Shown: piece after piece, positions 1,837-53,946 of the stretch
How positions within the stretch are numbered: the stretch's first letter is position 1
How the letters are laid out: the number at the start of each line of letters is the position of its first letter
Assembly: GCA_035699805.1 (NCBI GenBank)
Contig: DASSPF010000133.1
Location: forward strand, 9,659-73,658
Origin: Candidatus Limnocylindria bacterium
GTDB lineage: Bacteria; Chloroflexota; Limnocylindria; P2-11E
Reading direction: 5' to 3'
DNA: 64,000 nucleotides
Program-made: the position numbers and the translations under genes
Notes under the pieces: generated by a model
Databases searched by the model: none
Told to the model about the DNA's origin: nothing
What the model saw: the letters and a program-made list of their open reading frames with translations, nothing else

Positions 1837-2580
1837 TCAGAACGACCCACCCAGCAGCACGCGGATGAGGAACGTCGCCGGGACACGCACGAGCGGTGTG
1901 AGCAGGTCGATGCGCAGCATCGCCGGCACGAAGAAGATGAGTGCGAGAAGGATGAACGGCCCGTACTGCTCGTACGTGCGCCACGAGTACGCCTGACGCG
2001 GCGGGAGGAACCCGTACACCACCCGCGAGCCGTCGAGCGGCGGGATCGGGATGAGGTTGAAGACGAAGAGCAGGCAGTTGTAGATCACGATCGCGCTCAG
2101 TACCTCTTGGTACACGGCGCCGATCTCCCCTGCCCCGAGATCGACGAAGCGCAGCGGGATGGCACAGATCGTCGCGAGCACGAGGTTCGTCGCGGGCCCC
2201 GCGAACGCGACGAGGCTGCCGCCGCGGCGCCCGCCCTGCAGGCGCGACTCGTTCACCGGCACCGGCTTGCCGTATCCGAACCGGAGCAGCAGGAGGAAGA
2301 GCGAGCCCAGGAGGTCCAGGTGCGCGAGCGGGTTGAGCGTGAGGCGACCCATGAGCCTCGCTGTGTCGTCGCCGAGGCGGTGGGCGACGTACGCGTGCAT
2401 GAACTCGTGCACGGTGATACCCAGGACGATCGCGAGGATGAAGCTCCAGAAGCGCACGGGCTCCATGGTGGCCTCGTCCATCAGCGCGAAGATGGACCGG
2501 TAGTTGAAGAGGACGAGGAGGATGAAGAGGAACAGCATGGGGTCCATGCCGAACGGACCCGTGGAACGTCGAGCGATCAA
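1837..2580 (-). CDS. Site-2 protease family (M50) integral membrane metalloprotease
   Basis: Multi-TM protein with an HEFMHA (HExxH) zinc motif and an LDG motif, which define the M50/S2P family. The start is either 2580 or the ATG at 2547. Confidence 0.7.
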   Translation of the reverse strand: MIARRSTGPFGMDPMLFLFILLVLFNYRSIFALMDEATMEPVRFWSFILAIVLGITVHEFMHAYVAHRLGDDTARLMGRLTLNPLAHLDLLGSLFLLLLRFGYGKPVPVNESRLQGGRRGGSLVAFAGPATNLVLATICAIPLRFVDLGAGEIGAVYQEVLSAIVIYNCLLFVFNLIPIPPLDGSRVVYGFLPPRQAYSWRTYEQYGPFILLALIFFVPAMLRIDLLTPLVRVPATFLIRVLLGGSF

Positions 2581-2614
2581 TGCTCGACCAGTCTAGGTTT
2601 CTCGGCCGGACGCC

Positions 2615-3925
2615 TCAGCGGCCGGCGACCCGCGCGAGGAAGAGGCGTCGCGGCGCCACCCGTGCCACGCTCCATCCGAACGCGCGGCGGACCTGCTCGA
2701 CCGCCTCGCGGTCGTTCGGTGAGCCGGCGAGGTGCACCTCGGCGTACGGCGCGCCGCGCTCGACGCGGTCGCCGACCTTCGCGTGGAGCACGATCCCGGT
2801 CCGGTGGTCGATCGCATCGCCCTTCTTCGCGCGTCCGGCGCCCATCCGTACCGAGGCGAGCCCGACCTCATCCGCGGCGATCCGCTTCACGTAGGCCGTG
2901 CGGGCCGCGCGCAGTGTCTCGACGCGCGGCGCTCGCGGGAGCCGCGCCGGGTCGTCCACCATGCTCGCGTCGCCGCCCTGCGCGTCCACGAGCTCCCGTA
3001 GCTTCGCGAGCGCGCTCCCGTCGGCAAGAGCGGCCTCGGCGATCCTGCGCGCCGCGCGCGCGTCGCGAGCCCGGCGCCCGAGCACGAGCATCTCGCTTGC
3101 CGCGACGAGCGCGAGCTCGGTGAGGTCGCGCGGCCCATTGCCGTGCAGCGCCGCGATGGCCTCGGAGACCTCCAGCGCGTTCCCCACCGCGCGGCCGAGC
3201 GGCTGCTCCATGTCCGTGAGCTCGCAGGTCACGGCGAGACGGTGGGCGCGGCCGATCGCGACCATGGCGCGCGCAAGGGCGGTCGCTGAGCGGCGGTCCT
3301 TCATGGGGGCACCGCTGCCCACCTTCACGTCGAGCACGACCGCGTGGGCACCCGCCGCGATCTTCTTCGACATGATGCTCGAGGCGATCAGTGGGATCGA
3401 TGGGACGGTGCCCGTCACATCCCGGAGCGCATACAGGAGCCCGTCCGCTGGTGCCAGCTCCTTGGTCTGTCCCGTGACCACCACGCCGATCCGACCCAGC
3501 TGCGCGAGGAACTCAGATGTGGAGAGGTCCACGCGGTAGCCGGGGAACGACTCCAGCTTGTCGAGCGTCCCGCCCGAGAAACCCAGTCCGCGGCCGCTCA
3601 TCTTGGCCACGGGCAGACCGCACGCCGCCACGAGCGGCGCGACGACCAGCGTCGTTTTGTCGCCGACGCCGCCGGTCGAATGCTTGTCCGCGACGCGACC
3701 GAAGCGCGTGAGGTCCAGCCGCTCCCCGGAATCGACCATCGCGCGGGTGAGCGAGGCCGTCTCCTTCACGTCCATCCCGCGCCAGACGATGGCCATCAGC
3801 AGCGCGGCCATCTGGTACTCCGGGATCTCGGCACGTGTGAAGCCCTGGACGAGGAAGTCGATCTCCCCCGCGGAGAGCTTCCCGCCGTCGCGTTTGCGCT
3901 GGATGAGGTCGACCGTGCGCATCAC
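2615..3925 (-). CDS. deoA: Pyrimidine-nucleoside (thymidine) phosphorylase
   Basis: 436 aa with glycosyl-transferase family 3 motifs (DKHSTGGVGDKT, SGRGLGFSGGTLDKLE). Its stop overlaps the punA start region. Confidence 0.85.
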   Translation of the reverse strand: MMRTVDLIQRKRDGGKLSAGEIDFLVQGFTRAEIPEYQMAALLMAIVWRGMDVKETASLTRAMVDSGERLDLTRFGRVADKHSTGGVGDKTTLVVAPLVAACGLPVAKMSGRGLGFSGGTLDKLESFPGYRVDLSTSEFLAQLGRIGVVVTGQTKELAPADGLLYALRDVTGTVPSIPLIASSIMSKKIAAGAHAVVLDVKVGSGAPMKDRRSATALARAMVAIGRAHRLAVTCELTDMEQPLGRAVGNALEVSEAIAALHGNGPRDLTELALVAASEMLVLGRRARDARAARRIAEAALADGSALAKLRELVDAQGGDASMVDDPARLPRAPRVETLRAARTAYVKRIAADEVGLASVRMGAGRAKKGDAIDHRTGIVLHAKVGDRVERGAPYAEVHLAGSPNDREAVEQVRRAFGWSVARVAPRRLFLARVAGR

Positions 3926-9207: not shown

Positions 9208-9641
9208 GTCTTTGATGTCTCCTCGATGAGCCAGCGTAGGGCGACCTCGTAGCCGACGACGCCCATGCCGATCACTTGATACGCGGTGACGTCCTTCAGG
9301 TAGCTATGGTGCCGGAACTGCTCGCGCTTCGTCACATCGCTGATGTGGACCTCGACGACCGGGAACGCGCACGCGGCCACGGCGTCGCGCAGGACGATCG
9401 AGGTGTGCGCCAGACCGCCGGGATTGATGATGGCACCATCCGAGCGCGCGTGCGCCTGAAGGAAGTCGATGAGCGCTCCTTCGTGATTCGACTGATAGGC
9501 CTCGAGCTCTGCGCCCGCCTCCCGCGCGATGCGGCGGCACCGCTCCTCGACCTCCGCCAGCGTCGTGGTCCCGTAGATCGCCGGCTCGCGCGTCCCCAGC
9601 GTGTTCAGGTTCGGTCCATTCACCAGGAGATACCGCCTCAC
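9204..9641 (-). CDS. aroQ: 3-dehydroquinate dehydratase, type II
   Basis: 145 aa (LLVNGPNLNTLGTREPAIYG ... INPGGLAHTS). GTG start with a GGAGGG Shine-Dalgarno sequence. Confidence 0.85.
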   Translation of the reverse strand: MRRYLLVNGPNLNTLGTREPAIYGTTTLAEVEERCRRIAREAGAELEAYQSNHEGALIDFLQAHARSDGAIINPGGLAHTSIVLRDAVAACAFPVVEVHISDVTKREQFRHHSYLKDVTAYQVIGMGVVGYEVALRWLIEETSKT

Positions 9642-11224
9642 GAGCCCTCCACGACCCGGCCGGCGGCGCGCAGCGCGGCCGCGCCGACGTCCGTCACCAG
9701 GCTGAACCGGCCGATGCGCCGCGGTAGCACCCAGCGCACCTTGCCGGCACGCACCTTCTTATCACGAGCGAGGAGCGTCCAGGCGGCCGGCGGGATACGC
9801 CCTCTCACTGGAAGACCCGCCTTGGTGAGCAGCCGTTCCACGTCGGCGCGCAGCGCGACCGGCGCGAGGCCGAGCCGCTCCGCGAGCGCGCACGCGTACA
9901 CCATCCCGAGCGCGACGGCCTCGCCGTGCGTGACCCGGTAGCGGCTGGCCGCCTCGTAGGCATGACCCATGGTGTGTCCGAAATTCAGGAGCGCGCGGAG
10001 CCCATGCTCCAGCGGGTCGGCCGTCACGACGCTCGCCTTGACCTCCACCGCAAGCGTCACCGCGGTGAGCGTCGGACCGAGCGCACCCGCGAGCACGCCG
10101 GGGATGGCGCGCTCGACGTGCGCGACCGACTCGCGGTCGACGAGGAACGCCGTCTTGATGACCTCGGCCAGGCCCGCCGATCGCTGCCGGCGCGGCAGCG
10201 TGGCGAGCGCGACGGGGTCAACGAGCACCGCCGCCGGCGAGTGGAAGGCGCCGACGAGGTTCTTCCCGGCCGCGATGTCGATGGCCGTCTTCCCACCGAT
10301 CGAGGCGTCGACCATGGCCAACAGCGTGGTGGGCACCTGGACCACGGGGACCCCCCGCAGGTAGGTCGCCGCGGCGAAACCCGCGGCATCGCCGATCGAG
10401 CCGCCACCCAGGGCGACCACACCACCGTCCCGGCCGATGCCGGCTTCGGCGAACGCGTGCCAGAGCGACGCCACCGCGCCGATGGTCTTCGCCGCCTCGC
10501 CCGTCGGCGCCGGCACGACGGTGACATCGAGGCCGGCTCCCACGAGCGACGCGCGAACGCGGCCTGCCAGGCGCGCACCGGCGGTGGGCTCGGTGACCAG
10601 CGCGACCCGGCCGGTCCAGCCCAGCTCGGCCACATACGTCCCGACGACGTCGAGCAGGCCCGCGCGGATGACGATCGGCGCGCGCCGCTCTCCCACGTCC
10701 ACGCGCAGGCCCCGGCTCGCGGCGAGCCACGCGACGATCGCGTCCGCGGTCTCGTCGGGCGACGCGCCGCCCACATCGAAGGTGACGTCGACGTCGCGAT
10801 ACGCGGCCTTGCGCTCGGGATCGCTCAGTGCGTGCCGGGCCCGATCGCGCGGCGAGAGCGATTGGTCCGGCCGCTTGGCCATGGTCGCGGCGATGCCCGC
10901 GGTGACCCGCGCGAGCGGTGCCCGCAGACCCACGATCAGCCCGAGCTCGCGCATCCGCTTGCGGTTCTCGGTGCGGAGCGGCGTGCCTCCCCCGGTGTCC
11001 ACGACGCACCACGCCGGTGTCGCCGGAAGCCCGTGCAGCGCGCGCGACTCCAGATCGCGAAAGCGCTCGATGCCGTCCTGCTCGATGGTGTCCTTGTTGG
11101 ACTTGCGCGCCCGCCGCTCCACGGCGCGATCGATCTCGAAGACACTGGCGGCGAGGCGCGTCGCGAGCACGGGGGCGAGGGTGCTCTTGCCGATCCCCGG
11201 CGGACCGACGAGGAAGATGTACAC
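9638..11224 (-). CDS. aroKB: Bifunctional shikimate kinase / 3-dehydroquinate synthase (AroK-AroB fusion)
   Basis: A single uninterrupted frame. The N-terminal third has a shikimate-kinase Walker A (VYIFLVGPPGIGKSTL). The C-terminal two thirds is a dehydroquinate synthase (GGGSIGDAAGFAA, NFGHTMGHAYE). The start is the GTG at 11224, preceded by the aroC stop and followed by VYI. Confidence 0.8.
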   Translation of the reverse strand: MYIFLVGPPGIGKSTLAPVLATRLAASVFEIDRAVERRARKSNKDTIEQDGIERFRDLESRALHGLPATPAWCVVDTGGGTPLRTENRKRMRELGLIVGLRAPLARVTAGIAATMAKRPDQSLSPRDRARHALSDPERKAAYRDVDVTFDVGGASPDETADAIVAWLAASRGLRVDVGERRAPIVIRAGLLDVVGTYVAELGWTGRVALVTEPTAGARLAGRVRASLVGAGLDVTVVPAPTGEAAKTIGAVASLWHAFAEAGIGRDGGVVALGGGSIGDAAGFAAATYLRGVPVVQVPTTLLAMVDASIGGKTAIDIAAGKNLVGAFHSPAAVLVDPVALATLPRRQRSAGLAEVIKTAFLVDRESVAHVERAIPGVLAGALGPTLTAVTLAVEVKASVVTADPLEHGLRALLNFGHTMGHAYEAASRYRVTHGEAVALGMVYACALAERLGLAPVALRADVERLLTKAGLPVRGRIPPAAWTLLARDKKVRAGKVRWVLPRRIGRFSLVTDVGAAALRAAGRVVEGS

Positions 11225-11226
11225 GG

Positions 11227-12375
11227 CTAGCCGCGCTGGTCGATCGGCCCGAGGCGTGCCCGGTAGCGCTCGACCGCGACGCGCAGGTCGTCGGCGTTGT
11301 CGGAACCGAACTTCTCGCACAGGGCGTCGGCAAGAACGAAGGCGAGCATCGCCTCCGCCACCACGCCCGCGGCGGGGATGACGCACACGTCGCTCCGCTC
11401 CACGTGGGCCGGCGCGGGCGCGCCGGTGCGGAGGTCCGCCGACGGCAGCGGCTTCATGAGCGTGGAGATCGGCTTGAAAGCGACGTCCACCAGGATGTCC
11501 TCACCGTTGGTCATCCCGCCCTCGAGGCCGCCGGCGCGGTTGCGGGTGCGGACGAACCGTCCGTCCTCCACCGCGATCGGGTCGTGCACCGCGCTCCCCC
11601 GCTCGTGTGCTGCCGCGAACGCGTCCGCGAACTGGATGCCCTTCGCGCTCTGGATCGACAGCAACGCCTGCGCGATCCGGCCGTCGAGCCGGCGATCCCA
11701 CTGCGCGGTCGTGCCGAGGCCGGGGACCACACCGCTGGCCCGCAGCGCCACGACGCCACCCAGGGTGTCGCCGGCATCGCGCGCCGCGGCGATCGCCGCG
11801 ACCATCGCTCGCGCGCGCTCCGGATCAGCGCAGCGCACCTCGCTCGCCTCCACCGCCCCGGTCTCGAACCGCGGCTCGCTCACCACGTCGCCGATCGCGC
11901 GCGTCTCGCTCATCACGGCCATCCCCACGAACCGCAGCAGCGCCTTGGCGACAGCCCCCGCGGCCACACGCGCCGCGGTCTCGCGTGCGCTCGACCGCTC
12001 GATGACGTCGCGGACGTCCTCGTGTCCGAACTTCAGCGCACCCGCGAGGTCGGCGTGCCCCGGACGCAGCCGCGTCACCGGGGCGGGCGGGTCGGGCACG
12101 GGCGCGACGCTCATCACGCGCTCCCAGTTCACGGCGTCACGGTTGGGGATCTGCAGCGCGATCGGCGCCCCCGTGGTGCGGCCGTGGCGCACGCCGGCGC
12201 TGATGAACACCGCGTCGCGCTCGATGCGCTGGCGCGCGCCGCGCCCGTACCCCAGCTGGCGTCGGTGGAGGTCGGGGTCAATGTCCGCCGCGGAGAGCGG
12301 CAGCGCCGCAGGGACGCCATCGATGATCGCCACCAGACCGGGACCGTGCGACTCGCCCGCGGTGAGCAGTCTCAT
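11227..12375 (-). CDS. aroC: Chorismate synthase
   Basis: Start trimmed to MRLLTAGESHGPGLVAIIDGVPA. Full chorismate-synthase length, with an ATGA overlap onto aroE. Confidence 0.85.
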   Translation of the reverse strand: MRLLTAGESHGPGLVAIIDGVPAALPLSAADIDPDLHRRQLGYGRGARQRIERDAVFISAGVRHGRTTGAPIALQIPNRDAVNWERVMSVAPVPDPPAPVTRLRPGHADLAGALKFGHEDVRDVIERSSARETAARVAAGAVAKALLRFVGMAVMSETRAIGDVVSEPRFETGAVEASEVRCADPERARAMVAAIAAARDAGDTLGGVVALRASGVVPGLGTTAQWDRRLDGRIAQALLSIQSAKGIQFADAFAAAHERGSAVHDPIAVEDGRFVRTRNRAGGLEGGMTNGEDILVDVAFKPISTLMKPLPSADLRTGAPAPAHVERSDVCVIPAAGVVAEAMLAFVLADALCEKFGSDNADDLRVAVERYRARLGPIDQRG

Positions 12376-13202
12376 GTCCGCACCTCCGCTCGCGCCGGAC
12401 GGGGCAGGGCCGCGGCCATGACGCCAAGCGGCGCCTCGCGTCCGGTCCACAGCGTGAACGACCGCGCCGCCTGGTGCAGGAGCATCGCCAGACCGTCGAC
12501 GGTGCGCCGCCCTGCGGGCGCGTCCTCAGTCCGTGCGCGAAGGCAGAGCGGCGTCTCGGCAGCGGTGGGAACCAGGTCGATGACCACGGACGGCAGACGC
12601 GCCACCCCGGCGTCGGCCGCGGCGTCCTCCCCGTGCAGCCCGAGCGGTGTCGCGTTCACCAGCACGTCGATCCCCTCCAGGCCGGCGACAGCGGACCACG
12701 CCACGGCCGTCGCGCGCGGATCCGGCCCCAGGACCGTCGCGATGACCGAAGCGGCCTGGGCGGGCCGGCGGCTCGCGATGACGAGCTCGTTGCCATGGGC
12801 GAGCTCGGCCACGACGGCGCGTGCGGCGCCCCCCGCGCCGAGCACGAGGACGCGGCAACCCACCGGCCGCGGGGCGATCGCCTGCGCGAAGCCGGCGCGA
12901 TCGGTGTTCTCTCCGACCAGACGGCCCGCACGGCGGACGATCGTGTTCACCGCCCCGATCGCGCGCGCATCCGCGCCGGTCTCGTCCATGGATCGCAGTG
13001 CGGTCTCCTTGTGCGGGACGGTCACGTTCGCGCCCAGCCACTCGTCCCCGCGAAGCGCATCGATCGCGGCCGCGAGCCGGTCCGCCGTGACGTCGCGGAC
13101 CTCATAGGAGTGCGGGAGGCCCAGCGCCGCGAATGCGGCGTTGTGCATGGCCGGCGAGAGCGAATGCGCGACCGGATGACCGAGCAGCGCCACGCGTGCC
13201 AT
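12372..13202 (-). CDS. aroE: Shikimate dehydrogenase
   Basis: 276 aa (LLGHPVAHSLSPAMHNAAF, GAGGAARAVV, NATPLG). Confidence 0.8.
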   Translation of the reverse strand: MARVALLGHPVAHSLSPAMHNAAFAALGLPHSYEVRDVTADRLAAAIDALRGDEWLGANVTVPHKETALRSMDETGADARAIGAVNTIVRRAGRLVGENTDRAGFAQAIAPRPVGCRVLVLGAGGAARAVVAELAHGNELVIASRRPAQAASVIATVLGPDPRATAVAWSAVAGLEGIDVLVNATPLGLHGEDAAADAGVARLPSVVIDLVPTAAETPLCLRARTEDAPAGRRTVDGLAMLLHQAARSFTLWTGREAPLGVMAAALPRPARAEVRT

Positions 13203-14374
13203 CAGCGGTTCCCGTACTTCACACGGTTCGCCTCGTGCTCCTCGAGCGTCTTGGCGAAGACGTGCTGCCCCGTGCCGTCGCTCTTCGCGACGAAGAAGAG
13301 ATAGTCGTGCTCGGCCGGCTTCGCCGCGCCCTCCAGCGCCGCCTGCCCCGGATTGCAGATCGGGGTCGGCGGGAGGCCCGCGTTCCGGTAGGTGTTGTAC
13401 GGGGAATCGAGCTTGAGATCCTCGAGCGAGAGCTCACGCCAGTCACCGAGCGCGTACTGGATCGTCGGGTCGGCGTCGAGCTTCATGCCGATCCGCAGGC
13501 GGTTGGCGTACACCCCGGCGATCGCGGCGCTCTCGGAACGGTCGCGCGCTTCGCGCTCGACGATCGACGCGAGCTTCACCAGGTCGTACACCGTCGTGTT
13601 CCGCTGCGCGGCCGCGCTGCGGAGCGCGGGGCCAGAGCGCAGCTCGAACTGCGCGAGCAGCACGTCGACGATCTGCGCCGCGGTCGTCTCCGGCCGCAGG
13701 AAGTACGTGTCCGGGAAGAGGAAGCCCTCGAGGGACGTCTTCGCACCCAGGCCCGCGAGGATGCCGTTCTTGCGCTCGCCGACCACCGCGGCGCTGATGA
13801 ACGAGTCGCTCGAGATCTTGGGGAACGCCTTCTGGACCGCTGCCGCGATCTCCGTGAGCCGCCAGCCCTCGATGAGCCGGAGCACCACCTGATCGCCCGG
13901 CGCCTTCTCGAAGAGTCGGGCCAGCTGGCGTGGGGTGAGGCCGGGGGACACCTGGTAGGTGCCGGACTGGAGGGCGCTCTCCTTCCCGTTCTCGTAGAGC
14001 ACGAACACGAATGCCAGCGCCGAGCGCAGGACGCCCTCCGCGACCAGACGCTCGGCGATCTCACCAGCGGTCTCGCCCCGCGCGATGACGAACGGTCGCG
14101 TCTCGCCGCGCACGTCCTTCGCAAGATCGACCTCGCCGCTCACGCGGCCGGCCACGATCGAGCGGACGAAGTCCTGGCGAAGGAGCGTGTGGTGCTCGGT
14201 CACATAGGCGATGACCGCCTCCTCGGCGAGGGGCCGCGCGATGGCCACCGCCGCCACGGCGGCGATCGCGACGGCGATGAGGAAGACGAGTGGGCCCGAC
14301 GACGACCGCGGCCGCGGCGGCCGGGCGCGCGATGAGACCCGCGGCTGGGGACCGCGCGGCGCGGGACTGCTCAT
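13202..14374 (-). CDS. mltG: Endolytic murein transglycosylase MltG (YceG family)
   Basis: N-terminal TM helix followed by a YceG-like domain (RLRIGMKLDADPTIQYALG, LDSPYNTYRNAGLPPTPICNPG). In the conserved position after ruvX. Confidence 0.8.
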   Translation of the reverse strand: MSSPAPRGPQPRVSSRARPPRPRSSSGPLVFLIAVAIAAVAAVAIARPLAEEAVIAYVTEHHTLLRQDFVRSIVAGRVSGEVDLAKDVRGETRPFVIARGETAGEIAERLVAEGVLRSALAFVFVLYENGKESALQSGTYQVSPGLTPRQLARLFEKAPGDQVVLRLIEGWRLTEIAAAVQKAFPKISSDSFISAAVVGERKNGILAGLGAKTSLEGFLFPDTYFLRPETTAAQIVDVLLAQFELRSGPALRSAAAQRNTTVYDLVKLASIVEREARDRSESAAIAGVYANRLRIGMKLDADPTIQYALGDWRELSLEDLKLDSPYNTYRNAGLPPTPICNPGQAALEGAAKPAEHDYLFFVAKSDGTGQHVFAKTLEEHEANRVKYGNR

Positions 14375-14757
14375 GAGCGGCGCGCGTGTCCTCTGAAGAA
14401 GTCCTCGAGCAGCACGACCGCGGCGCCGGCGTCGAGGTCGGTCGCGCCCCGCGCCTGGGCCTCCGCGGTCGTGAAGCGCTCGTCGGCGAGGTGGATCGGG
14501 CGGTCGAGCGTGCGCGCGGCGTCCGCAAAGCGGCGCACGCGCTCGGCCTGGTGGGCGACCTCGCCCTTGAGGTTGAGTGGCAGCCCGATCACGATCGCGC
14601 CGACGTCCTCCTTCACGACGATCTCCCGCAGGGTCTCCAGGTCGGCGGCGATGCCACGCCGCCTCAGCGTACGAAGCGGACGCGCGAGTCCGAACGCCTC
14701 ATCACCCACCGCGAGGCCGATCGTCCGGTCACCGACGTCGAGCGCAAGATACCTCAC
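14371..14757 (-). CDS. ruvX: Holliday-junction resolvase-like RNase RuvX/YqgF
   Basis: Start trimmed to a GTG (VRYLALDVGDRTIGLAV...). RNase-H-like YqgF motifs. The start lies 3 nt after the upstream stop. Confidence 0.75.
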   Translation of the reverse strand: MRYLALDVGDRTIGLAVGDEAFGLARPLRTLRRRGIAADLETLREIVVKEDVGAIVIGLPLNLKGEVAHQAERVRRFADAARTLDRPIHLADERFTTAEAQARGATDLDAGAAVVLLEDFFRGHARRS

Positions 14758-14759
14758 GG

Positions 14760-16253
14760 TCAGGGCGAGGCCGCGGCGGGGGCGTCGCTCTCGATCTGGA
14801 TCCGCGAGTCGAGCAGCGGCAGGCGTGGCCACCAGCCTGGCCACGTGCTGACGCGCACCAGGCGCAGCCCGCGGCCCGAGACGATCTGCTCCACCTCCTC
14901 GAACGGGCGGCCGGCGAGCGCGGCGCGGATCGCCGCCGCATCGAGGCGGCGGAACTGCGAGGCGCGCGCGCGGACGCGCCAGTGCACGCCATCATCCTCG
15001 ACCGTCGGGGCGCCCACGATGTCGACGACCGCGCCGCGCGCGTCGATGTCATGCCCGGTGTCGGCCTCCTGCTGCAGCCGCGCGATGGCCGTCGTGCGCG
15101 GCTCGGTCGACGGGACGCTGTACCCGGTGGCCGTCCCCGTCGCGACCAGATCGAAGCTGGTCTCACCCACCTTCAGCTCCTTACCCACGACCTCGGCGGC
15201 AGCGGTGAGTCCGGTCCGCTTCACGACCACGCCGTAGATCGTCTGTCCGGCCGGCGCGGTCCGCTTCCAGACCTCGACCTGCGCGTCCGCCTGCGTGCGC
15301 AGCTCACCGTCGGCACGCGACGCCGCGAGCTCGTAGTCCGCCAGCTGCACGATCGGGATCTTCTTGGAGTCGCCGCCGCTGGTGGGCTCGGGATTCTCGA
15401 CGCTGTACTGGCTCGGGTTGGGGCTGACCACGATGCGCCGGGCTCCCACGTTGCCCGACGGGCCTGGCGCCACGGCCTCGATCGGGATGTCGACGCGCCC
15501 GGCGGTGATGCTGGGCGGGAAGATGACGAACGTCGTCCGCGGCAGCGTCTTGTCCTCGGTCGTCTGGAACGCGATGTTGTCCGACGTCTTCACGATGGTG
15601 CCGCGGGGGATGCGGATGTCCGAGGTGGTCAGGTTGGTGAAGCGCTCCACGCCCTTCGCCTTCGTCTCCTCCAGGCGCGAACCGGTCGCGGTGCCGGTGA
15701 ACCGCGCCGTGATGGCCGACGGCCCCTGCGTCGTCGCGTCGATATCACCGCTCGGGCCGGCACGGAGGTCGTACTCGCGCGGACCCAGCGGCTGCGAGAT
15801 CGGCGCCACCACCACGGTCGCGGTGGGTGCGAGCACGGCGAAGAGCACCGCGGCCGCGGCCAGGAGCGCCAGGAACGCCGCGCCCACGCGCACCGGCGAG
15901 GTCCGGCGTGGCTCGGCGGCCACGATCGCCGCGCGGCGGACCGGCCCGAGCGGCTCGGTGGCGTCGAGCTCGTGCCGCTCGAGCGCGGACACGCTCGCGA
16001 AGGCCGGCATGTGCACCGACGTCGCGAGCGATCGGGCGCGCGCTTCCGGCGTGACGAGCGCGACCCGCCTGGCGCCCGCCGCGCGCCGCATGACCTCGAG
16101 GAAGATCGGGCTGCGCAGGACCGGCGCACCCGCCGCGACCGCGAGCACCAGCTCGTCGTCGGCCGGCGCGGCTTGGATGCGATCGATGGCGTCCAGGACG
16201 GTCGCCCGCGCGCCGAGGTCGATCACCGTGCGTCCGCCGATGCGCGCGCTCAC
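14760..16253 (-). CDS. Hypothetical bitopic membrane protein: cytoplasmic domain of about 120 aa, one TM, and a large Thr/Pro/Gly-rich extracytoplasmic beta-rich domain
   Basis: 497 aa. Hydrophobic helix RVGAAFLALLAAAAVLFAVLAP. Coding-like composition throughout, with no recognisable catalytic motif. It is translationally coupled to ruvX downstream and to the PilM-like gene upstream. Confidence 0.6.
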   Translation of the reverse strand: MSARIGGRTVIDLGARATVLDAIDRIQAAPADDELVLAVAAGAPVLRSPIFLEVMRRAAGARRVALVTPEARARSLATSVHMPAFASVSALERHELDATEPLGPVRRAAIVAAEPRRTSPVRVGAAFLALLAAAAVLFAVLAPTATVVVAPISQPLGPREYDLRAGPSGDIDATTQGPSAITARFTGTATGSRLEETKAKGVERFTNLTTSDIRIPRGTIVKTSDNIAFQTTEDKTLPRTTFVIFPPSITAGRVDIPIEAVAPGPSGNVGARRIVVSPNPSQYSVENPEPTSGGDSKKIPIVQLADYELAASRADGELRTQADAQVEVWKRTAPAGQTIYGVVVKRTGLTAAAEVVGKELKVGETSFDLVATGTATGYSVPSTEPRTTAIARLQQEADTGHDIDARGAVVDIVGAPTVEDDGVHWRVRARASQFRRLDAAAIRAALAGRPFEEVEQIVSGRGLRLVRVSTWPGWWPRLPLLDSRIQIESDAPAAASP

Positions 16254-17338
16254 TCTTCGTACAGTCCGGCAGCGATCGCCGCCGCGCCCACGGCCACCAG
16301 GTCGTCCGAACGCAGGGGCACGTCGCCGTAGACCCGCGTCGCCGACCCGACACCGAGCGGAGCGATGTCGACGGCGTCACCGCGGATCTCCCCCGCCGCC
16401 TTCGCGAGCGCGGATGGCAGCGCGAGGAGCGACTCGGGGACGCCGACGAAGATCCAGCGACCGGGTGGTGGGCCGTCCAGACCACGCAGCGAGACGATCA
16501 CGCAGTCGGCCCACACCCGCGCATCCCCTTCCGCGGCCGATCGGGCGAGCAGCCCGGCACGGCCGAGCGCGAACACGCGCGTCGCGACGACACGCCCCTC
16601 GCGCAGGATGGCCAGCGACGTGGCATCGGGCCCCAGGCGCACGACGCCCGCATCGGTGATGCCCGACGCGGCGAGCAGCCGTCCGAGCGAATACGCGCCC
16701 GAAACGACGTTGCCCCGCCGGCGAGCGGCCTCGAGCGTGGCGGTGGCCGCACCGGTGATCACCAGCGGCGCGATGGTCACGTCCGTCCACACCTCGACGA
16801 GACGGCCGCGATGCCCGGCCAGCGAGCGCAGCCCTCGACCGTCGAGGGCGAGCGCGGCGACGTCATCGTGCAGCTGGGCCGTCGGCACGCCGCGAAGCGC
16901 CGCATCCTCCTCGGTCGCCGCGGCCGCGCGTGTCGTCGCATCCGCCGTCGCCTCCCGCACGGCGCGTGATTCCTCGCCGGCGCTCACGGGTGCCCGCGAG
17001 TCCTCACGCTCGAACGCCGTGAGCACGTGGAAGGTCCGCATGTCGTCGCTGTCGACGGCAAGGGCGATCCGATCGGACCGCTGCACCTGTTCCGCCTGCG
17101 CGAGCGCGGCGCGGAGCGCCTCGGCGGCGGCGCCACGATCGGCCACCAGCCCACCGCTGACCGCCGCGTCGGGCAACGCGGACTCCCCGCGGCCGAGGAC
17201 ACGCAGCCGCGAATCCTCGCGACGCGCCACGACGACGCGTGCGACGCCCGAGGAGAGCTCCGCCCCGGCCACCGCCGGTCCGCGCTGGGCCGTCGGCCGC
17301 GCGTCGCGGGCGTGGGTGACGGGTCTAGTTGCGGTCAC
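16250..17338 (-). CDS. Actin-like ATPase-fold protein (FtsA/PilM-like), probably degenerate
   Basis: 362 aa. N-terminal sugar-kinase/actin-like strand pattern (VARVVVARREDSRLRVLG...) and a C-terminal GVVRLGPDATSLAILREGRVVATRVFALGRAGL, resembling the second phosphate-binding repeat of FtsA/PilM but without a canonical DxGxxT motif. The call is by pattern only. Confidence 0.5.
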   Translation of the reverse strand: MTATRPVTHARDARPTAQRGPAVAGAELSSGVARVVVARREDSRLRVLGRGESALPDAAVSGGLVADRGAAAEALRAALAQAEQVQRSDRIALAVDSDDMRTFHVLTAFEREDSRAPVSAGEESRAVREATADATTRAAAATEEDAALRGVPTAQLHDDVAALALDGRGLRSLAGHRGRLVEVWTDVTIAPLVITGAATATLEAARRRGNVVSGAYSLGRLLAASGITDAGVVRLGPDATSLAILREGRVVATRVFALGRAGLLARSAAEGDARVWADCVIVSLRGLDGPPPGRWIFVGVPESLLALPSALAKAAGEIRGDAVDIAPLGVGSATRVYGDVPLRSDDLVAVGAAAIAAGLYEE

Positions 17339-19997
17339 GTCCCCCGTTCAAACGCTCGCGGACGGCCGATCGTGCCGCCTCGATCGCGTCGGAGAGGCGC
17401 CCGGGATCCTTGCCGCCCGCCGACGCGCTCTCGGGCCGCCCGCCACCACGTCCATCGATGATGCCCTGCACCTGCTTCACCAGCTTGTCGGCGTCCAGCC
17501 CGGGGACGAGATCCTTGGTGACCGTGATGACGAGCGTGGGCTTGTCCTCCCGAACGCCGCCGAGGATGACGACCCCAGACCCGATCTTCTCGCGCACGCG
17601 GTCCGAGAGGGCGCGCAGGAACGCGACGTCGCCGTCACCCACGTGCTGGGCCACGAGTCGGGCCTGGCCCAGGGCCTCGGCCTTCGCCAGCAGCGCGCCG
17701 GCGGTGCTCTCGATCCCGCTTCGCTGCACCGACTCGAGCTGCTGGCCGAGCCGCTCGCGCGACTCCATGAGCTGCGCCACGGCCTCGGGCACACGCGCCG
17801 CCGGCACCCGGAGCGCCGCGGCGGCGCGGCCCAGGCGCTCGCGGATCTCGCGCACCTCGCGGAGCGCGCCCACGCCGGTCACGGCCTCGATGCGGCGCAC
17901 GCCGGCGCCGATGCTCTCCTCCCTGGTGATGAGGAAGAGGCCGATGTCGCCCGTGCAGTGACAGTGCGTCCCGCCGCACAGCTCGCGGCTGGGCCCCGCC
18001 TCGACGACGCGGACCTGGTCGTCGTACTTCTCGCCGAACAGCGCCATGGCACCCGACGCGAGCGCGTCCTGGAGCGGCATGACCCGCGCATGCACGTCGG
18101 CGTTCTCGAGGATCGCGCGGTTCACCTCGTCCTCCACCCGCTGGAGCTCCTCGGCGGTGAGCCCCCGCCCGAACGTGAAGTCGAATCGGAGGTTGGGCGC
18201 GTGCACCAGCGACCCGGCCTGGTGGACGTCCTCGCCAAAGAGGCTCCGCAGCGTCGCATGCAGGAGGTGCGTCGCCGTGTGGTTGCGCATGGTGTCGCGG
18301 CGCAGCGTCTCGTCCACCACCGCCCTGGCCGGCGCACGCAGGCGGAGCACCCCATCGACGACCTTCGCGCTCATCACGATGACGCCGGGCGCGGCCGTCT
18401 GCGTGTCGGCCACGAGAGCCCGCCCCTCGTCGGTCGTGATGGTGCCGCGGTCGCCCACCTGGCCGCCACCCTCCGGATAGAAGGGGGTCCGGTCGAGGAC
18501 GAGCTCCACGTCCTGACCCTCATACGCCTGCTCCACGCGGGAACCGCCGACGACCAGCGACACGATGGCCGCGTCGCTCGCGAGCTCCTCGTATCCCCGG
18601 AACTCGCTCCTGATGCCCTCGGTCTCCTTCAGCATCGCGTAGAACTGGCCGAACTTCATCGCGTCCTGGGTGAACTTCGCGCTGGCACGGCTCCGGCTCC
18701 GCTGCGCCTCGAGCTGGTCACGGAAACGGTCCTCGTCCACGCCCAACCCGGCGCTCGCGGCGATCTCCTGCGTCATCTCCACCGGGAATCCGAACGTGTC
18801 GTAGAGGCGGAACGTCGTGTCTCCGTCGATGAAGGTCTGTCCCATCGCCTTCGCGCGATCGATGGCCTCGGTGAGCATGGCGAGGCCGTTCGCGAGCGTG
18901 CGCTCGAACTTGGCCTCCTCGTCCGCCAGGATCTCGGCGATCCGATCGCGCGCGGAGGTGAGCTCGTGGTGGTGGCGCTGCATGGTCTTCACCACCTCGG
19001 CCGCGAGGCCCGGCATGAAGCCGGTGCGCAGCCCGAGCCTCCGCCCGTGCATCGCGGCCCTGCGGATGAGCCGGCGCAGCACATAGCCGCGCCACTCGTT
19101 CGACGGCGCGATGCCGTCGGCGATGAAGAACGTCGCGGCACGCGTGTGCTCGGCCACGATGCGCATCGACATCGTCGTGTCGGTCTCGGCGCCGTACGTC
19201 TTGCCCGAGAGCGCCTCGATCTTCTTGATCAGCGGGAGGAACAGATCGGTCCGGTAGGCGTCGCCCACCACGCCCTGCAGCACCTGCGCGAGCCGCTCGA
19301 GGCCGACACCCGTGTCGATGTTCTTCTTTGCGAGCGGCTGGAGGGTCCCGTCGGCCTTGCGGTCGTACTGCTGGAAGACGAAGTTCCAGATCTCCAGATA
19401 CCTGCCACAGCTCTCCCCGGGGTCACAGCGGTGTGGCGCCACCCCCGGCTGCGGACCGCGATCGATGAACACCTCGCTGCACGGCCCGCACAGCCCGGTC
19501 GGGCCGGGAGACCAGAAGTTCGTGTCGTCGCCCTTCGCCAGGTCACCCAGACGGAAGACCTTCTCGGGCGGGAGGAGAGCGAGCTCCTTCGTCCAGATGT
19601 CGAAGGCCTCGTCGTCGTCGAAGTAGATAGTGGCGACGAGCTTCGTCGGATCGAAGCCGAACTCCTTGGTGAGCAGCTCCCAGCCCCAGGCGATGGCCTC
19701 TTTCTTCCAGTAGTCGCCGACACCGAAGTTGCCGAGCATCTCGAAGAAGGTCTGGTGATAGCCGTCCTTCCCGACCTCGTCGATGTCGGTGGAGCGGAAG
19801 ACCTTCTGGATCGTCACGATCCGCTTGCCCGGCGCCTGCTTGCGGCCGTTGAAGTAGGGCACGAGCGGCTGCATGCCCGCGCTGGTGAACAGCACGCTCG
19901 GGTCGTCCTTCAGGACCAGCGGCGCGCTGGGCAGCCGGATGTGGCCCTTCTCCTCGAAGAACCGGAAGAACCTGTCGCGGATGGTGGAACTCTCCAG
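17325..19997 (-). CDS. alaS: Alanine--tRNA ligase
   Basis: The 856 aa ORF plus a 34-codon in-frame N-terminal extension give ...ESSTIRDRFFRFFEEKGHIRLPSAPLVLKDDPSVLFTSAGMQPL, the canonical AlaS N-terminus. The extension contains no ATG, GTG or TTG. The best candidate start is the CTG at 19995-19997, 6 nt after a GGGAG Shine-Dalgarno. The coordinates assume that start. Confidence 0.85.
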   Translation of the reverse strand: MESSTIRDRFFRFFEEKGHIRLPSAPLVLKDDPSVLFTSAGMQPLVPYFNGRKQAPGKRIVTIQKVFRSTDIDEVGKDGYHQTFFEMLGNFGVGDYWKKEAIAWGWELLTKEFGFDPTKLVATIYFDDDEAFDIWTKELALLPPEKVFRLGDLAKGDDTNFWSPGPTGLCGPCSEVFIDRGPQPGVAPHRCDPGESCGRYLEIWNFVFQQYDRKADGTLQPLAKKNIDTGVGLERLAQVLQGVVGDAYRTDLFLPLIKKIEALSGKTYGAETDTTMSMRIVAEHTRAATFFIADGIAPSNEWRGYVLRRLIRRAAMHGRRLGLRTGFMPGLAAEVVKTMQRHHHELTSARDRIAEILADEEAKFERTLANGLAMLTEAIDRAKAMGQTFIDGDTTFRLYDTFGFPVEMTQEIAASAGLGVDEDRFRDQLEAQRSRSRASAKFTQDAMKFGQFYAMLKETEGIRSEFRGYEELASDAAIVSLVVGGSRVEQAYEGQDVELVLDRTPFYPEGGGQVGDRGTITTDEGRALVADTQTAAPGVIVMSAKVVDGVLRLRAPARAVVDETLRRDTMRNHTATHLLHATLRSLFGEDVHQAGSLVHAPNLRFDFTFGRGLTAEELQRVEDEVNRAILENADVHARVMPLQDALASGAMALFGEKYDDQVRVVEAGPSRELCGGTHCHCTGDIGLFLITREESIGAGVRRIEAVTGVGALREVREIRERLGRAAAALRVPAARVPEAVAQLMESRERLGQQLESVQRSGIESTAGALLAKAEALGQARLVAQHVGDGDVAFLRALSDRVREKIGSGVVILGGVREDKPTLVITVTKDLVPGLDADKLVKQVQGIIDGRGGGRPESASAGGKDPGRLSDAIEAARSAVRERLNGGRDRN

Positions 19998-20021
19998 CTC
20001 TCGCTCCCTACTCCAGTGATG

Positions 20022-20059
20022 AAAAAACGCGGGGCGACCGCACGGTCACTCCCCGCGTT
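20022..20059 (-). terminator. Rho-independent terminator (hairpin plus T6) downstream of the ytxH-like gene and immediately upstream of alaS
   Basis: On the minus strand: AACGCGGGG, a 16-nt loop with an inner stem, then CCCCGCGTTTTTTCA. Confidence 0.6.
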
Positions 20060-20088
20060 CCCCTGCTCTCTGGGGCAAGTCTAGCGAA

Positions 20089-20343
20089 TCAGACCGCGGA
20101 TCCGCCCTCGCCGCCCGAGCGCTGCGTGCTCTTCTCCCACTGGCGCTTGGCCTCGTCCGCGAGCTCGCGACCCTTGACCTGCGCCTGCTGGGAGAGCTCC
20201 TGCGCCGCGCGCTGCAGCTCGTCCGCCCTGCGCTTCAGCTCGTCGCTGCGCTGCCGCAGCTCCTCGCGCGTCACGTCGCCGGGCTTCGGCGCGTAGAGGA
20301 GCGCGATGACCGCACCGGTGAGCAGTCCGATGAAGAATCCCAT
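20089..20343 (-). CDS. YtxH-like membrane-anchored coiled-coil protein
   Basis: 84 aa. N-terminal TM (MGFFIGLLTGAVIALLY), then a charged helical region (EELRQRSDELKRRADELQRAAQEL). ATG with a GGGGAG Shine-Dalgarno. Followed by the terminator. Confidence 0.6.
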   Translation of the reverse strand: MGFFIGLLTGAVIALLYAPKPGDVTREELRQRSDELKRRADELQRAAQELSQQAQVKGRELADEAKRQWEKSTQRSGGEGGSAV

Positions 20344-20395
20344 GGCTCAAAAACTCCCCTCTGTCATCCGCTCGTGTGAGCGGTCGCCCTCGACG

Positions 20396-20653
20396 TTAGC
20401 GCTTCGCGTCGCGCTCCGCGATGCCGAGGCCCAGCGCGGCGAGTGCCGCGGCGGCGGCCGCGAAGAGCACCTGCGCGTCACCGACCATCCCCAGGCGGGA
20501 GCCGGTGAGCTCGCCGGCGGCCTGTGCGACGGCCACGGCCGCGAGCGCGAGCAGCCAGGCGCGGCCGAGCGCGCGCGGCCGACCGAGCGCTGCGCGGAAG
20601 GCGGCCGGCACACCGATCGCCACGAGCACGAGCGGGATGAGCGCGGGTGGCAT
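20396..20653 (-). CDS. Small hydrophobic protein (85 aa, 2-3 predicted TM segments)
   Basis: This is the C-terminal 85 codons of the otherwise Arg-rich 472-aa ORF. It starts at an ATG that overlaps the TGA of the upstream membrane protein (ATGA). Sequence MPPALIPLVLVAIGVPAAF...LFAAAAAALAALGLGIAE. Confidence 0.4.
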   Translation of the reverse strand: MPPALIPLVLVAIGVPAAFRAALGRPRALGRAWLLALAAVAVAQAAGELTGSRLGMVGDAQVLFAAAAAALAALGLGIAERDAKR

Positions 20654-22038
20654 CAGGCGGCCCGCTCGTCGCGCGAGATCGCCCGCAGCCTCGCCGGCAT
20701 GGCGAAGAGCGTGAGTGCCCCCGCCTCGCGCGCGCGCTGGACGGAGAGATCGCCCAGACCCAGGCGCACGAGCGCCGCGAAGGCGAAGAGCGGGACCAGG
20801 AAGAAGTACGAGAAGAGGCTGCGCCAGGCGAAGAACAGCGGGATGAACGCCAGCACGATGCCCAGCTCCGGGCTGCTGCGCCGCGCGCGCCAGGCGATCA
20901 CCAGGCACGTCACGAAGGCCAGGGCCTCGAGACCCAGGTACGCGGTCGCGGGGAGCAGCGGCAGTCCGCCGTTCGTCGAGAGGAACACCAGACCCGCGCC
21001 TCGGGCGAACATCGGCTCGACCACCGGTGTCAGGATGCCGGCCAGCCAATCCTGCGGGTGCCAGGCGGCGAACGGCAGGTTCGCCACCGCGAAGACGGCC
21101 GCGCCCGCCGCGGCGTGCCGCAGCACCGCGCGGAGCCCGCCGGTCGTGTACACCGCGATGAGGTAGAAGGGCGCCACGAACCAGGCGAGCTGCTTCACCG
21201 CCGCCGCGAGACCGAACGCGATACCCCCGGCGAGCCGGTCGCGCCACAGCCAGGCGGCGACGAGCGGCAGGGCGTACAGCAGGTCGGCGCTGCCGCCCAC
21301 GGTGAACGCGGCGAGACACGCCGAGCCCAGGAGTCCGGTCAGCACGAACGGGCGCAGCCCGGCCGTCGCGCGCGCCGTGATGAGCGCCATCGCGGCGATC
21401 AGACACGCCAGATACACGTAGTTCGTATCGACCCCGAGCGCGACGAACGGCAGGAGCAGCAGGAACGAGAGGCTCGGGTACGAGGGGCGCGAGACGAACT
21501 CCACGTTCTCGCCCCCGCTCGCGCGGCTGGCCCACGCGCGGTCGAGCTGGTCGTCGCTCGGATACACGCTCACGTCCGCGAAGAGCCCGCGTCGCAGGGG
21601 CGTCGTGCGGTCGGCCCCGATCGCGAAGCGCTCGTAGCAGTCGAAGATGTCCAGAGTCGCGTACGGGTCCCGGCCCTCGAGCAGGAGCCGGGCCGCGCAG
21701 TCGTTCAGCGCGATCGCGTCGTTGTGATACGGGGTCCAGTCGTTGCTGTGCTTGCGCGGCATGGTGAAGAACCACGCCAGCGAGACCACCGCCATGACGC
21801 ACACGAAGAGCCACACCAGCCGGTGCGCCGCGACGAGCCGCGGTGGGCTCGCCGCGTCACCGGCCCCGGTGCCCCGCAGCGCCGCGGCCATCACGACGAG
21901 CGCGGCGCCGATGGCGAGGACCACCGCGACCGTGCCCGGCCGCTCGGGCCGCTGGATGATCGTGCTGTTGAGGAGCCCGGCGTAGTAGAGGGCCGTCCCC
22001 GCCATGGCGACGGCGGCGATCCGCAGGAGCGCGCGCAT
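20653..22038 (-). CDS. Polytopic integral membrane protein, DUF2029/GT87-like (putative lipid-linked glycosyltransferase)
   Basis: 461 aa with about 10 or more hydrophobic helices, Trp/Arg-rich loops and no Arg-rich junk. The overlapping 472-aa ORF in the other frame is rejected. The start is 3 nt after the mnmA stop. Confidence 0.65.
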   Translation of the reverse strand: MRALLRIAAVAMAGTALYYAGLLNSTIIQRPERPGTVAVVLAIGAALVVMAAALRGTGAGDAASPPRLVAAHRLVWLFVCVMAVVSLAWFFTMPRKHSNDWTPYHNDAIALNDCAARLLLEGRDPYATLDIFDCYERFAIGADRTTPLRRGLFADVSVYPSDDQLDRAWASRASGGENVEFVSRPSYPSLSFLLLLPFVALGVDTNYVYLACLIAAMALITARATAGLRPFVLTGLLGSACLAAFTVGGSADLLYALPLVAAWLWRDRLAGGIAFGLAAAVKQLAWFVAPFYLIAVYTTGGLRAVLRHAAAGAAVFAVANLPFAAWHPQDWLAGILTPVVEPMFARGAGLVFLSTNGGLPLLPATAYLGLEALAFVTCLVIAWRARRSSPELGIVLAFIPLFFAWRSLFSYFFLVPLFAFAALVRLGLGDLSVQRAREAGALTLFAMPARLRAISRDERAA

Positions 22039-53290: not shown

Positions 53291-53946
53291 GTGCCGGCCC
53301 GCACGGCCGCCGCGATCCGTGCCACTTGGTCCGCGACATCTGGTCCATTGCGGATCTCCAGATGTCCTCCCGGCGGTGGCTCGAGATCTCGCGCGCGCAT
53401 CCGCTCGTACACGCGGACATCGGCGTCGGAGTGATCGCCGTCGGCGCGCTCGCGCGCACGCGCGGCGAGGCGCTCGCGCGTCGCCGCATCGTCGGCGGTC
53501 ACGAGCACGTGATGGAGCGCCGCTCCGCGTGCGCGCGCCACCGCCTCCGCCGGGGCGCGGTTGCGCGCCACCAGATGCGTCGCGTCGAGAACGACGATGT
53601 GGCCCTCGCCGAGCAGCTCGTCGACGAGCGCCTCGGCGATGCCGAACACCGCCGCGTTCTCGTCGTCCGCATACGACGCCGCGATGAACAGCCGGCTGCG
53701 GAGGTGATCCGTCGCGACGTGTGCGGCCCCGAGCTCGCGCGCGAGGAGCGCCGCGCAGTGCGACTTGCCGACGCCCGGCAGGCCCATGAGCATCACGAGC
53801 GCCGGCCGACCCGCGGCGGCGCGCGGGACCCCGATCTCCTCGCGCAGCTGCGCGGTGAGCGCACGACGGTGCGCCGCGAGCGCGCGTGTCTGCGCGCGGG
53901 TCGCCGCGTCCGAGAGCCGCGCCGTCCGCGCGCGCGCCCGGGTCAT
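53287..53946 (-). CDS. P-loop kinase, AAA_33/zeta-toxin-like family
   Basis: Walker A MGLPGVGKSH and Walker B-like VVLDAT. 219 aa. ATGA overlaps with murE upstream and the TolB-like gene downstream. Confidence 0.6.
   Translation of the reverse strand: MTRARARTARLSDAATRAQTRALAAHRRALTAQLREEIGVPRAAAGRPALVMLMGLPGVGKSHCAALLARELGAAHVATDHLRSRLFIAASYADDENAAVFGIAEALVDELLGEGHIVVLDATHLVARNRAPAEAVARARGAALHHVLVTADDAATRERLAARARERADGDHSDADVRVYERMRARDLEPPPGGHLEIRNGPDVADQVARIAAAVRAGT

Follow-up and report, generated by a model that had tools for sequence, protein, structure and literature searches.

A gene pair held between alaS and ruvX in Candidatus Limnocylindria: an FtsA-family actin-fold protein with decayed nucleotide-binding motifs and a bitopic membrane protein with a baseplate-wedge-like outer domain

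Three bacterial actin-fold proteins, FtsA, MreB and PilM, are coupled to the cell envelope through bitopic membrane partners. In the MreB-RodZ complex, a small folded cytoplasmic domain of RodZ binds the actin homologue and is followed by a juxtamembrane linker, one transmembrane helix and a beta-rich outer domain, and the complex belongs to the elongasome, where in some species it acts with MltG. PilM-PilN and the fused GspL likewise bring together a cytoplasmic actin-fold protein and a bitopic membrane protein; the cytoplasmic domain of GspL, which we take to be a nucleotide-free actin fold lacking subdomain 2B, is presumably the nearest analogue, in terms of how it works, of the decayed protein described here. 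A layout that parallels those of MreB-RodZ, FtsA-FtsN/ZipA, PilM-PilN and GspL by analogy is seen in two adjacent genes, here called A and B, of Candidatus Limnocylindria (Chloroflexota), an uncultured soil and freshwater bacterium. The genes lie in a 64-kb stretch of contig DASSPF010000133.1 (hereafter the window; guanine-plus-cytosine (GC) content 73–75%), where an initial annotation had placed two uncharacterised genes of 362 and 497 amino acids (aa) between alaS and ruvX, at exactly the coordinates confirmed here (Table 1). A and B form a vertically inherited two-gene module of Limnocylindria, always situated between alaS and ruvX-mltG. Our tentative reading, to which we would assign a probability of roughly 45%, is that the pair makes up a transmembrane scaffold of the envelope or of division, specific to this lineage, with B serving as the anchor of an A that is no longer catalytic.

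Both A and B are real genes, as established by their GC content at third codon positions (GC3; 0.85 for A and 0.94 for B), by homologues (101 for A, more than 359 for B) with many invariant columns in both proteins, by confident AlphaFold2 (AF2) models, with a predicted local distance difference test score (pLDDT) of 91.5 for A and 84.8 for B, and by conserved synteny. The length of an open reading frame (ORF) is weak evidence at 73–75% GC, as illustrated by a 1239-aa ORF (16365–20084, plus strand) that runs antisense over alaS and A; this ORF and a 584-aa ORF opposite B (14577–16331, plus strand) are by-products of high GC and not genes. Searching the window with both proteins (tblastn) returned no paralogue of either one.

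The pair belongs to an unbroken co-directional run on the minus strand that comprises hisS, aspS, a cysteine-desulfurase-like gene, mnmA, a gene of 461 aa, ytxH, alaS, A and B, and that continues after B with ruvX, mltG, aroE, aroC, aroK-aroB, aroQ, efp and xseA. The junctions around the pair are tight. The alaS stop codon (TAG, 17325) overlaps the A start (GTG, 17338) by 14 nucleotides (nt), the TGA of A and the GTG of B share the sequence GTGA at 16250–16253, and the likely true start of ruvX (GTG, 14757) lies 2 nt beyond the B stop (TGA, 14760). The 4-nt overlap between A and B recurs in 31 of 45 related loci, the other 14 showing a 1-nt overlap or a gap of 1–2 nt. Scanning the minus strand from 12000 to 20600 revealed no terminator-like site between alaS and aroE; the only such site in that interval is a hairpin with a T-run after ytxH (Table 1), a possible upstream limit of the transcription unit. 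This hairpin precedes the probable alaS start by no more than some 30 nt. No Rfam family (e.g., T-box) and no tRNA was detected in the window, and hence no match was obtained for the alaS start region.

Two types of the pair can be distinguished, a short type, to which the window belongs, and a long type. The order alaS-A-B-ruvX-mltG-aroE is present in 48 of 48 short-type genome loci and in the Limnocylindria locus L001, as far as their contigs reach, and the order alaS-A-B-ruvX-mltG holds in 85 long-type loci (5, plus 80 sampled from metagenomes) wherever the flanking sequence suffices. Among the 80 metagenome loci, those with enough flank invariably carry the FtsA-like gene (56/56) and alaS (35/35) upstream of long-type B, and ruvX (67/67) and mltG (52/52) downstream of it. 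The pair is hence strictly co-inherited, besides being tightly coupled as the initial annotation had noted. The window AlaS is 84–85% identical to the AlaS proteins of the Limnocylindria loci L001 and L002, whereas AlaS identity between short-type and long-type loci is just 38–47%, which indicates that the A-B arrangement is old. All named relatives are metagenome-assembled genomes (MAGs) of Candidatus Limnocylindria, Limnocylindrales or Chloroflexota, and not of the Thermoleophilia or Actinobacteria that had been suggested as the lineage. A whole-library profile search recovered 4850 representative clusters at E≤1e-3, 2033 at E≤1e-10 and 176 at E≤1e-30; the 2033 clusters at the intermediate threshold and a low-GC relative with the same arrangement (L053) suggest a reach beyond Limnocylindria.

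The long type, which is the common and, it appears, the ancestral form, differs from the short type in both proteins. Long-type A has 420 aa; its phosphate-1, phosphate-2 and adenosine motifs are all intact, and an amphipathic helix forms its C-terminus. Long-type B (520–700 aa) is homologous to short-type B from end to end (hhalign E 2e-70) and consists of a STAS-like cytoplasmic domain with the invariant motif YLDxDDEIT...TSRINFRLL, a long, disordered, low-complexity linker, a transmembrane helix and a baseplate-wedge-like outer domain; in short-type B, some 25 conserved juxtamembrane residues are all that is left of the linker. Mean pairwise identity within the long type is 0.80 for the FtsA-like protein, 0.81 for EF-P, 0.73 for AlaS and 0.43 for B. 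In the short type, the Kimura distance is 0.58 for A and 0.29 for AlaS, so that A evolves about twice as fast as AlaS.

Several irregularities were noted among the related loci. Typical Limnocylindria alaS-A-B-ruvX-mltG clusters occur in MAGs labeled 'Candidatus Acidiferrales' (L007, DASQIF010000254.1) and 'Candidatus Bathyarchaeia archaeon' (L032, DASPWX010000016.1), labels that are probably due to binning contamination. In locus L046 (5980–7325), B is matched in one piece over residues 1–235 only and a gap of 313 nt precedes ruvX, which may stem from misassembly or from a frameshift or deletion in B. The MltG of long-type loci has 452–715 aa (L050, at 10654–12801, and L051, L052 and L054), as against 390 aa in the window, due to a long N-terminal extension, and these loci carry a pepQ-like M24 peptidase gene between mltG and efp, where the window carries shikimate genes.

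Protein A has the FtsA/PilM fold and descends from an FtsA-like rather than a PilM-like ATPase. Its AF2 model (predicted template modeling score 0.89) finds its best Foldseek matches in FtsA and PilM, with E values from 1e-19 to 1e-14 and a TM-score of up to 0.68 (FtsA chains), and matches to EutJ and Ppx/GppA are weaker by at least 10 orders of magnitude. An assignment to Ppx/GppA or the sugar kinases was considered and rejected, the fold matches lying about 12 orders of magnitude below those to FtsA and PilM; the outcome that the initial annotation had named as contrary to its proposal, namely that both proteins belong to known unrelated families such as a Ppx/GppA phosphatase and a transporter, is not what was found. 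The model further reveals an insert with strand-helix-strand-strand topology (strands E101–110, E153–165 and E180–191 and helix H120–144 by DSSP) that can be read as the 1C/SHS2-type subdomain (residues 101–191) setting FtsA and PilM apart from other actin folds. It opens with D96-x-D98-D99-x-R101-T102, invariant in the clade (52 family members). At the sequence level, A matches no Pfam family, including PF14450 and PilM_2 (PF11104), and no TIGR01174; it scores 14.5 bits on the PilM model TIGR01175, against a cut-off of 133. The family profile of A has its best match among PDB sequences in Pseudomonas aeruginosa PilM (5eou, E 1.5e-5). Ancestry is decided by the long-type protein, to which A aligns in hhalign with 98.5% probability and 28% identity: long-type A passes Pfam FtsA (PF14450) and attains 110–115 bits on the FtsA model TIGR01174 (cut-off 175.85), as compared to 17–33 bits on the PilM model.

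The comparison with FtsA therefore has two sides. On the one hand, A shares the FtsA fold, including the insert read as 1C/SHS2-type, and its long-type orthologues retain the ATP motifs, a segment aligning to subdomain 2B and the C-terminal amphipathic helix. On the other hand, the Gly-rich nucleotide loops and the membrane-targeting helix are gone from A, as is part of the 2B-aligned region, and A adjoins no ftsZ, its coupling being to another membrane partner; the major ORFs scanned in the 64-kb window included no ftsZ. These losses were mapped on a MAFFT alignment of A with long-type orthologues and on a family alignment of 52 short-type members. At the phosphate-2 position, the Asp has given way to Arg and the Gly triplet has disappeared, yet the site is newly constrained, with D238 and T240 invariant and R234 and G236 at least 90% conserved among the 52 members. 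The decayed state of the motifs is fixed across these members, together with new shared invariant residues. The C-terminus of A (...AAIAAGLYEE) contains no amphipathic helix, whereas long-type orthologues end in the amphipathic ...LDAALRRVLRAMKL. Lastly, 17 and 13 aa have been deleted within the GGRAFTKSLADRLDLPFPRAE... stretch that aligns to FtsA subdomain 2B, and another 27 aa elsewhere. Judging from its motifs, A probably does not cycle ATP, as it is devoid of Gly-rich phosphate loops. The actin-like fold without intact phosphate-binding motifs that had been proposed for A is hence borne out, both by Foldseek and by alignment with orthologues that keep these motifs.

Protein B has a single hydrophobic segment, at residues ~118–142, with five Arg just upstream, and it is consequently predicted to be a bitopic protein with its N-terminus inside and its C-terminus outside, as originally described. 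In both types, no part of B is better conserved than its N-terminal domain. Generic alpha/beta domains come close to the degree of STAS likeness seen in this domain (~90 aa), and by sequence no STAS match was found for B, nor for the long-type N-domain alone at E values up to 1; as compared to STAS anti-sigma-factor antagonists (SpoIIAA, RsbV and RsbS), B has no kinase or phosphatase partner nearby. The juxtamembrane segment that follows has E95, D97, T99, E100, L102 and A108 as invariants, and pLDDT falls below 50 over residues 96–118. Over about 25 aa, its identity in the short type is 0.70, against 0.73 for the folded N-domain, and it was among the two most conserved B peptides picked for searches. 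The segment (ALERHELDATEPLGPVRRAA / ALERHELDATEPLG) is a candidate docking motif. The layout of B, and its proximity to mltG, are shared with RodZ by analogy only, with no relationship in sequence or fold: RodZ has a helix-turn-helix domain where B has a STAS-like one, and A is of FtsA type and not of MreB type.

The outer domain of B had been described as a large Thr/Pro-rich exported domain. Enrichment in these residues is only mild (Thr 10.1%, Pro 7.9%), and the domain is not anonymous, as it contains a Baseplate_J-like segment (PF04865) and has the overall wedge fold, aligning over its full length with complete phage baseplate wedge proteins (the family of P2 gpJ, Mu gp47, T4 gp6 and Pvc11/Afp11). 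The match to PF04865 spans just positions 16–109 of the 255 in the profile; B also matches the baseplate wedge subunit family phrog_6 in PHROG (E 3e-14), and wedge hallmarks of the GNV and NPxxTSGG types can be seen by eye. The beta-barrel module of the domain also matches a cellular enzyme, GlxA, and the sequence profile of B has no match among PDB sequences. Near its end, the outer domain carries a Trp/Pro motif with W471, P472, W475, P476, R477, P479 and R484 invariant, and the short-type and long-type versions of this motif align in hhalign. The secondary structure of residues 422–489 is reminiscent of a POTRA-like beta-alpha-alpha-beta-beta unit, but none of the listed fold matches bears this out. 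B differs from the wedge proteins in being membrane-anchored, in having a cytoplasmic domain and in being chromosomally encoded among housekeeping genes. No sheath, tube, gp25/TssE-like or gpI/TssG-like partner lies near B, all of whose neighbors are housekeeping genes.

Within the proposed scaffold, A would have lost ATP hydrolysis and, devoid of an amphipathic helix, would not reach the membrane on its own. Since another route to the membrane is then needed, the translationally coupled B is the obvious anchor, and A would serve there as a non-catalytic scaffold, retained through the cytoplasmic domain and juxtamembrane segment of B. The conservation profile of B, with its best conserved N-domain followed by an equally conserved juxtamembrane segment, fits a cytoplasmic binding partner. 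The outer domain of B may oligomerize like wedge proteins and would carry the complex to the cell-wall side, where the A-B complex would act in peptidoglycan growth or division, a role suggested by the constant company of, and apparent co-transcription with, mltG and by the presence of peptidoglycan genes in the window. We infer both the contact between A and B and the function of the pair, and several observations weigh against this reading. After subtraction of the AlaS signal, the correlation of A and B distances (r 0.67) is about the same as that of A with ruvX (0.66) or with mltG (0.65), and the 150 best representatives include no fused A-B protein. The genes flanking the pair serve general housekeeping (aminoacyl-tRNA synthetase, shikimate-pathway, efp and xseAB genes), and its link to mltG may be one of history and not of function. 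Furthermore, the loss of ATP binding by A is read from its motifs, and the phosphate-1 motif with which PilM binds ATP bears some resemblance to that of A.

The long-type protein is labeled 'cell division protein FtsA' in IMG, and it might be a real FtsA that moved beside alaS, with B as an FtsN-, FtsQ- or ZipA-like divisome partner and with the short-type FtsA decaying after another Z-ring anchor, such as SepF, took over. Besides passing Pfam FtsA, long-type A has TIGR01174 as its best NCBIfam match, an FtsA-like C-terminal amphipathic helix, a GGRAFTKxLA segment aligned to 2B and a degree of conservation equal to that of EF-P, and the losses of the short type include the 2B-aligned stretch, which we take to be the region where Thermotoga maritima FtsA binds the FtsZ tail (PDB 4A2A). 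Its TIGR01174 score, however, falls short of the equivalog cut-off and covers only model positions 3–259 of 371, and in no locus examined does the FtsA-like gene adjoin ftsZ. Other Chloroflexota keep ftsA beside ftsZ (PMC10608941), so a separate canonical ftsA may exist. We regard this alternative as unlikely, and it sharpens the scaffold proposal rather than contradicting it. Alternatively, A and B could be independent proteins, a soluble actin-fold pseudoenzyme or regulator and an autonomous envelope protein (a wall or S-layer organizer, or a receptor), kept adjacent by operon inertia. A cluster that mixes unrelated housekeeping functions would allow for this, as would the non-specific co-evolution signal and the far faster evolution of long-type B relative to A. 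Independence is nonetheless hard to reconcile with perfect adjacency and frequent 4-nt start/stop coupling despite AlaS identity of about 40%, with a cytoplasmic domain that is the most conserved part of B, and with the retention of an A that has lost its own membrane-targeting helix, and it is in our view improbable.

The architecture of an actin-fold protein with a bitopic partner, together with the rank of PilM among the top fold matches of A and as its best sequence-profile match in the PDB, also fits an inner-membrane platform of the PilM-PilN type, as part of a machine for secretion or of a type IV pilus-like one, and the initial annotation had compared the pair to PilM-PilN and FtsA-FtsN sub-modules. 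The general architecture stands, but the short peptide of PilN or FtsN does not: B presents a folded N-domain of ~90 aa and an outer domain that is wedge-like and not ferredoxin-like. The score of A on TIGR01175 lies far below the cut-off and its ancestral form is nearer to FtsA, so that the notion of a PilM-like pilus sub-module fails on ancestry as well as on context. No pilO, pilP, pilQ, pilus ATPase or secretion gene was found in the scanned ORFs of the window or in related loci; genes for a pilin, PilB/C/T, PilO or a secretin were likewise absent from the major ORFs of the window and from the listed loci, and GspL is not among the 50 fold matches listed for A. A pilus or secretion platform is accordingly very unlikely. 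The Pfam Baseplate_J and PHROG matches of B, and its structural matches to wedge proteins of phages, PVC, Afp and diffocin, could finally be explained by B being the remnant of a prophage or of a contractile injection system (CIS), with A unrelated to it. B is fixed in a housekeeping position in more than 130 loci, however, with a host-like GC3, no other phage or CIS gene nearby and a transmembrane helix and cytoplasmic domain for which the matched wedge proteins (346–416 aa) are too short. In searches with tblastn, no relative of B was found in 2.9 million viral contigs or in 50,697 phage records. This origin, which is scarcely credible, was rejected on the combined absence of viral relatives and phage neighbors.

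A broader version of the scaffold reading would place the pair in an undescribed transmembrane machine of Limnocylindria, in which an FtsA-family ATPase conserved to the grade of EF-P, a STAS-like coupling and a membrane-anchored cellular wedge homologue oligomerizing outside would organize wall growth or division together with MltG; in the lineage of the window, the machine would have survived the loss of its ATPase activity, with the pseudo-enzyme tethered only by its partner. We consider this extension doubtful. No description of the A-B pair, of its fixed position or of its intact and decayed states was found in the literature searched. In terms of annotation, B is not uncharacterised as initially described, since it carries a family name at NCBI, and both folds are already known. 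NCBI annotates B as 'baseplate J/gp47 family protein' and A as 'hypothetical protein', labels that mask a single conserved two-gene unit and, in the case of B, its membrane topology and its partner.

Table 1. Position and nature of the features discussed (window coordinates)
Feature	Position	Strand	Description
Gene A	16250..17338	-	362 aa, FtsA-family actin-fold protein, decayed nucleotide-binding motifs (AF2, Foldseek, profile, hhalign)
A phosphate-1 position, residues 24-34	17237..17269	-	AGAELSSGVAR; ALDIGTEFAK in orthologues
A insert, residues ~98-191	16766..17047	-	Strand-helix-strand-strand (DSSP of AF2 model)
A phosphate-2 position, residues 234-241	16616..16639	-	RLGPDATS; D[IV]GGGTTD in orthologues
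A adenosine-motif position, residues 297-303	16430..16450	-	FVGVPES; LCGGGS in orthologues
Gene B	14760..16253	-	497 aa, bitopic membrane protein: cytoplasmic domain, transmembrane helix, baseplate-wedge-like outer domain
B N-domain, residues 1-95	15969..16253	-	Compact cytoplasmic alpha/beta domain, STAS-like by fold
B juxtamembrane segment, residues 90-109	15927..15986	-	ALERHELDATEPLGPVRRAA; conserved, low AF2 confidence
B transmembrane helix, residues 123-142	15828..15887	-	Kyte-Doolittle >1.6 only at 118-136; AF2 helix 120-140
B outer domain, residues 143-497	14763..15827	-	Extracytoplasmic, beta-rich, ~350 aa; resembles whole baseplate wedge (J/gp47/gp6-type) protein
B Baseplate_J segment, residues 192-294	15372..15680	-	Pfam PF04865, 31.8 bits (cut-off 21.1)
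B Trp/Pro motif, residues 471-484	14802..14843	-	WPGWWPRLPLLDSR; outer-domain end; long-type equivalent WPDWVxxIPTxDxR
Terminator-like hairpin and T-run	20027..20043	-	After ytxH; only such site on the strand in 12000-20600
alaS (alanine--tRNA ligase)	17325..19997	-	Pfam tRNA-synt_2c, tRNA_SAD, DHHA1; TIGR00344, 802 bits
ruvX (YqgF-type nuclease)	14371..14757	-	Pfam RuvX, 100 bits; probable start GTG 14757
mltG (YceG-family endolytic transglycosylase)	13202..14374	-	Pfam YceG, 275 bits; TIGR00247, 224 bits
aroE (shikimate dehydrogenase)	12372..13202	-	Next co-directional gene

The neighbors named in the initial annotation (alaS, ruvX, mltG and aroE) are supported by Pfam and TIGR matches (Table 1), and the flanking order alaS-ruvX-mltG-aroE ... 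aroQ-efp is presumably the one seen in Mycobacterium tuberculosis (Rv2555c–Rv2552c and Rv2540c–Rv2534c), which makes the earlier suggestion of Thermoleophilia or Actinobacteria easy to understand. The mechanical ORF of alaS begins at GTG 19895, and the conserved N-terminus runs further upstream with no in-frame ATG, GTG or TTG, the probable start being CTG 19997. At the homologous position, about 40 related loci show ATG, GTG, TTG, CTG, ATA, ATC and even GTH or ACN. On the sequence, the alaS start codon hence appears to be non-canonical, in which case gene callers clip AlaS by ~34 aa. Conversely, the mechanical ruvX ORF, which begins at GTG 14844, 85 nt inside B, is an over-extension, since its L001 orthologue has 128 aa and the other loci point to the same later start; mltG overlaps the ruvX stop by 4 nt. 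Further along the run, a single ORF of 582 aa (9638–11386, minus strand; 528 aa in L001) is an apparent fusion of shikimate kinase and 3-dehydroquinate synthase (aroK-aroB). Between mnmA and ytxH, the 461-aa ORF (20653–22038, minus strand) has a GC3 of 0.95 but matches nothing in Pfam or NCBIfam, and L001 has a gene of equal length in the same place (2241–3626), also lacking a Pfam match; the cluster may thus contain one more conserved but uncharacterised gene. Elsewhere in the window (53943–57543, minus strand), a gene for a MurE-like Mur ligase is followed by two FemAB-family genes in overlapping ORFs, which indicates that the organism makes peptidoglycan with interpeptide bridges.

If the scaffold reading is correct, the A-B pair would represent a fourth way of coupling a cytoskeletal protein to the envelope, besides those of FtsA, MreB and PilM with their bitopic partners. 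The module is fixed in an abundant, uncultured class of soil and freshwater bacteria. With an outer domain akin to a phage baseplate protein, it would also provide a clear case of wedge-protein architecture being used in cell biology. Furthermore, the coexistence of an intact, constrained ATPase in the long type and a decayed, faster-evolving one in the short type offers a natural comparison on the need for an FtsA-like nucleotide cycle.

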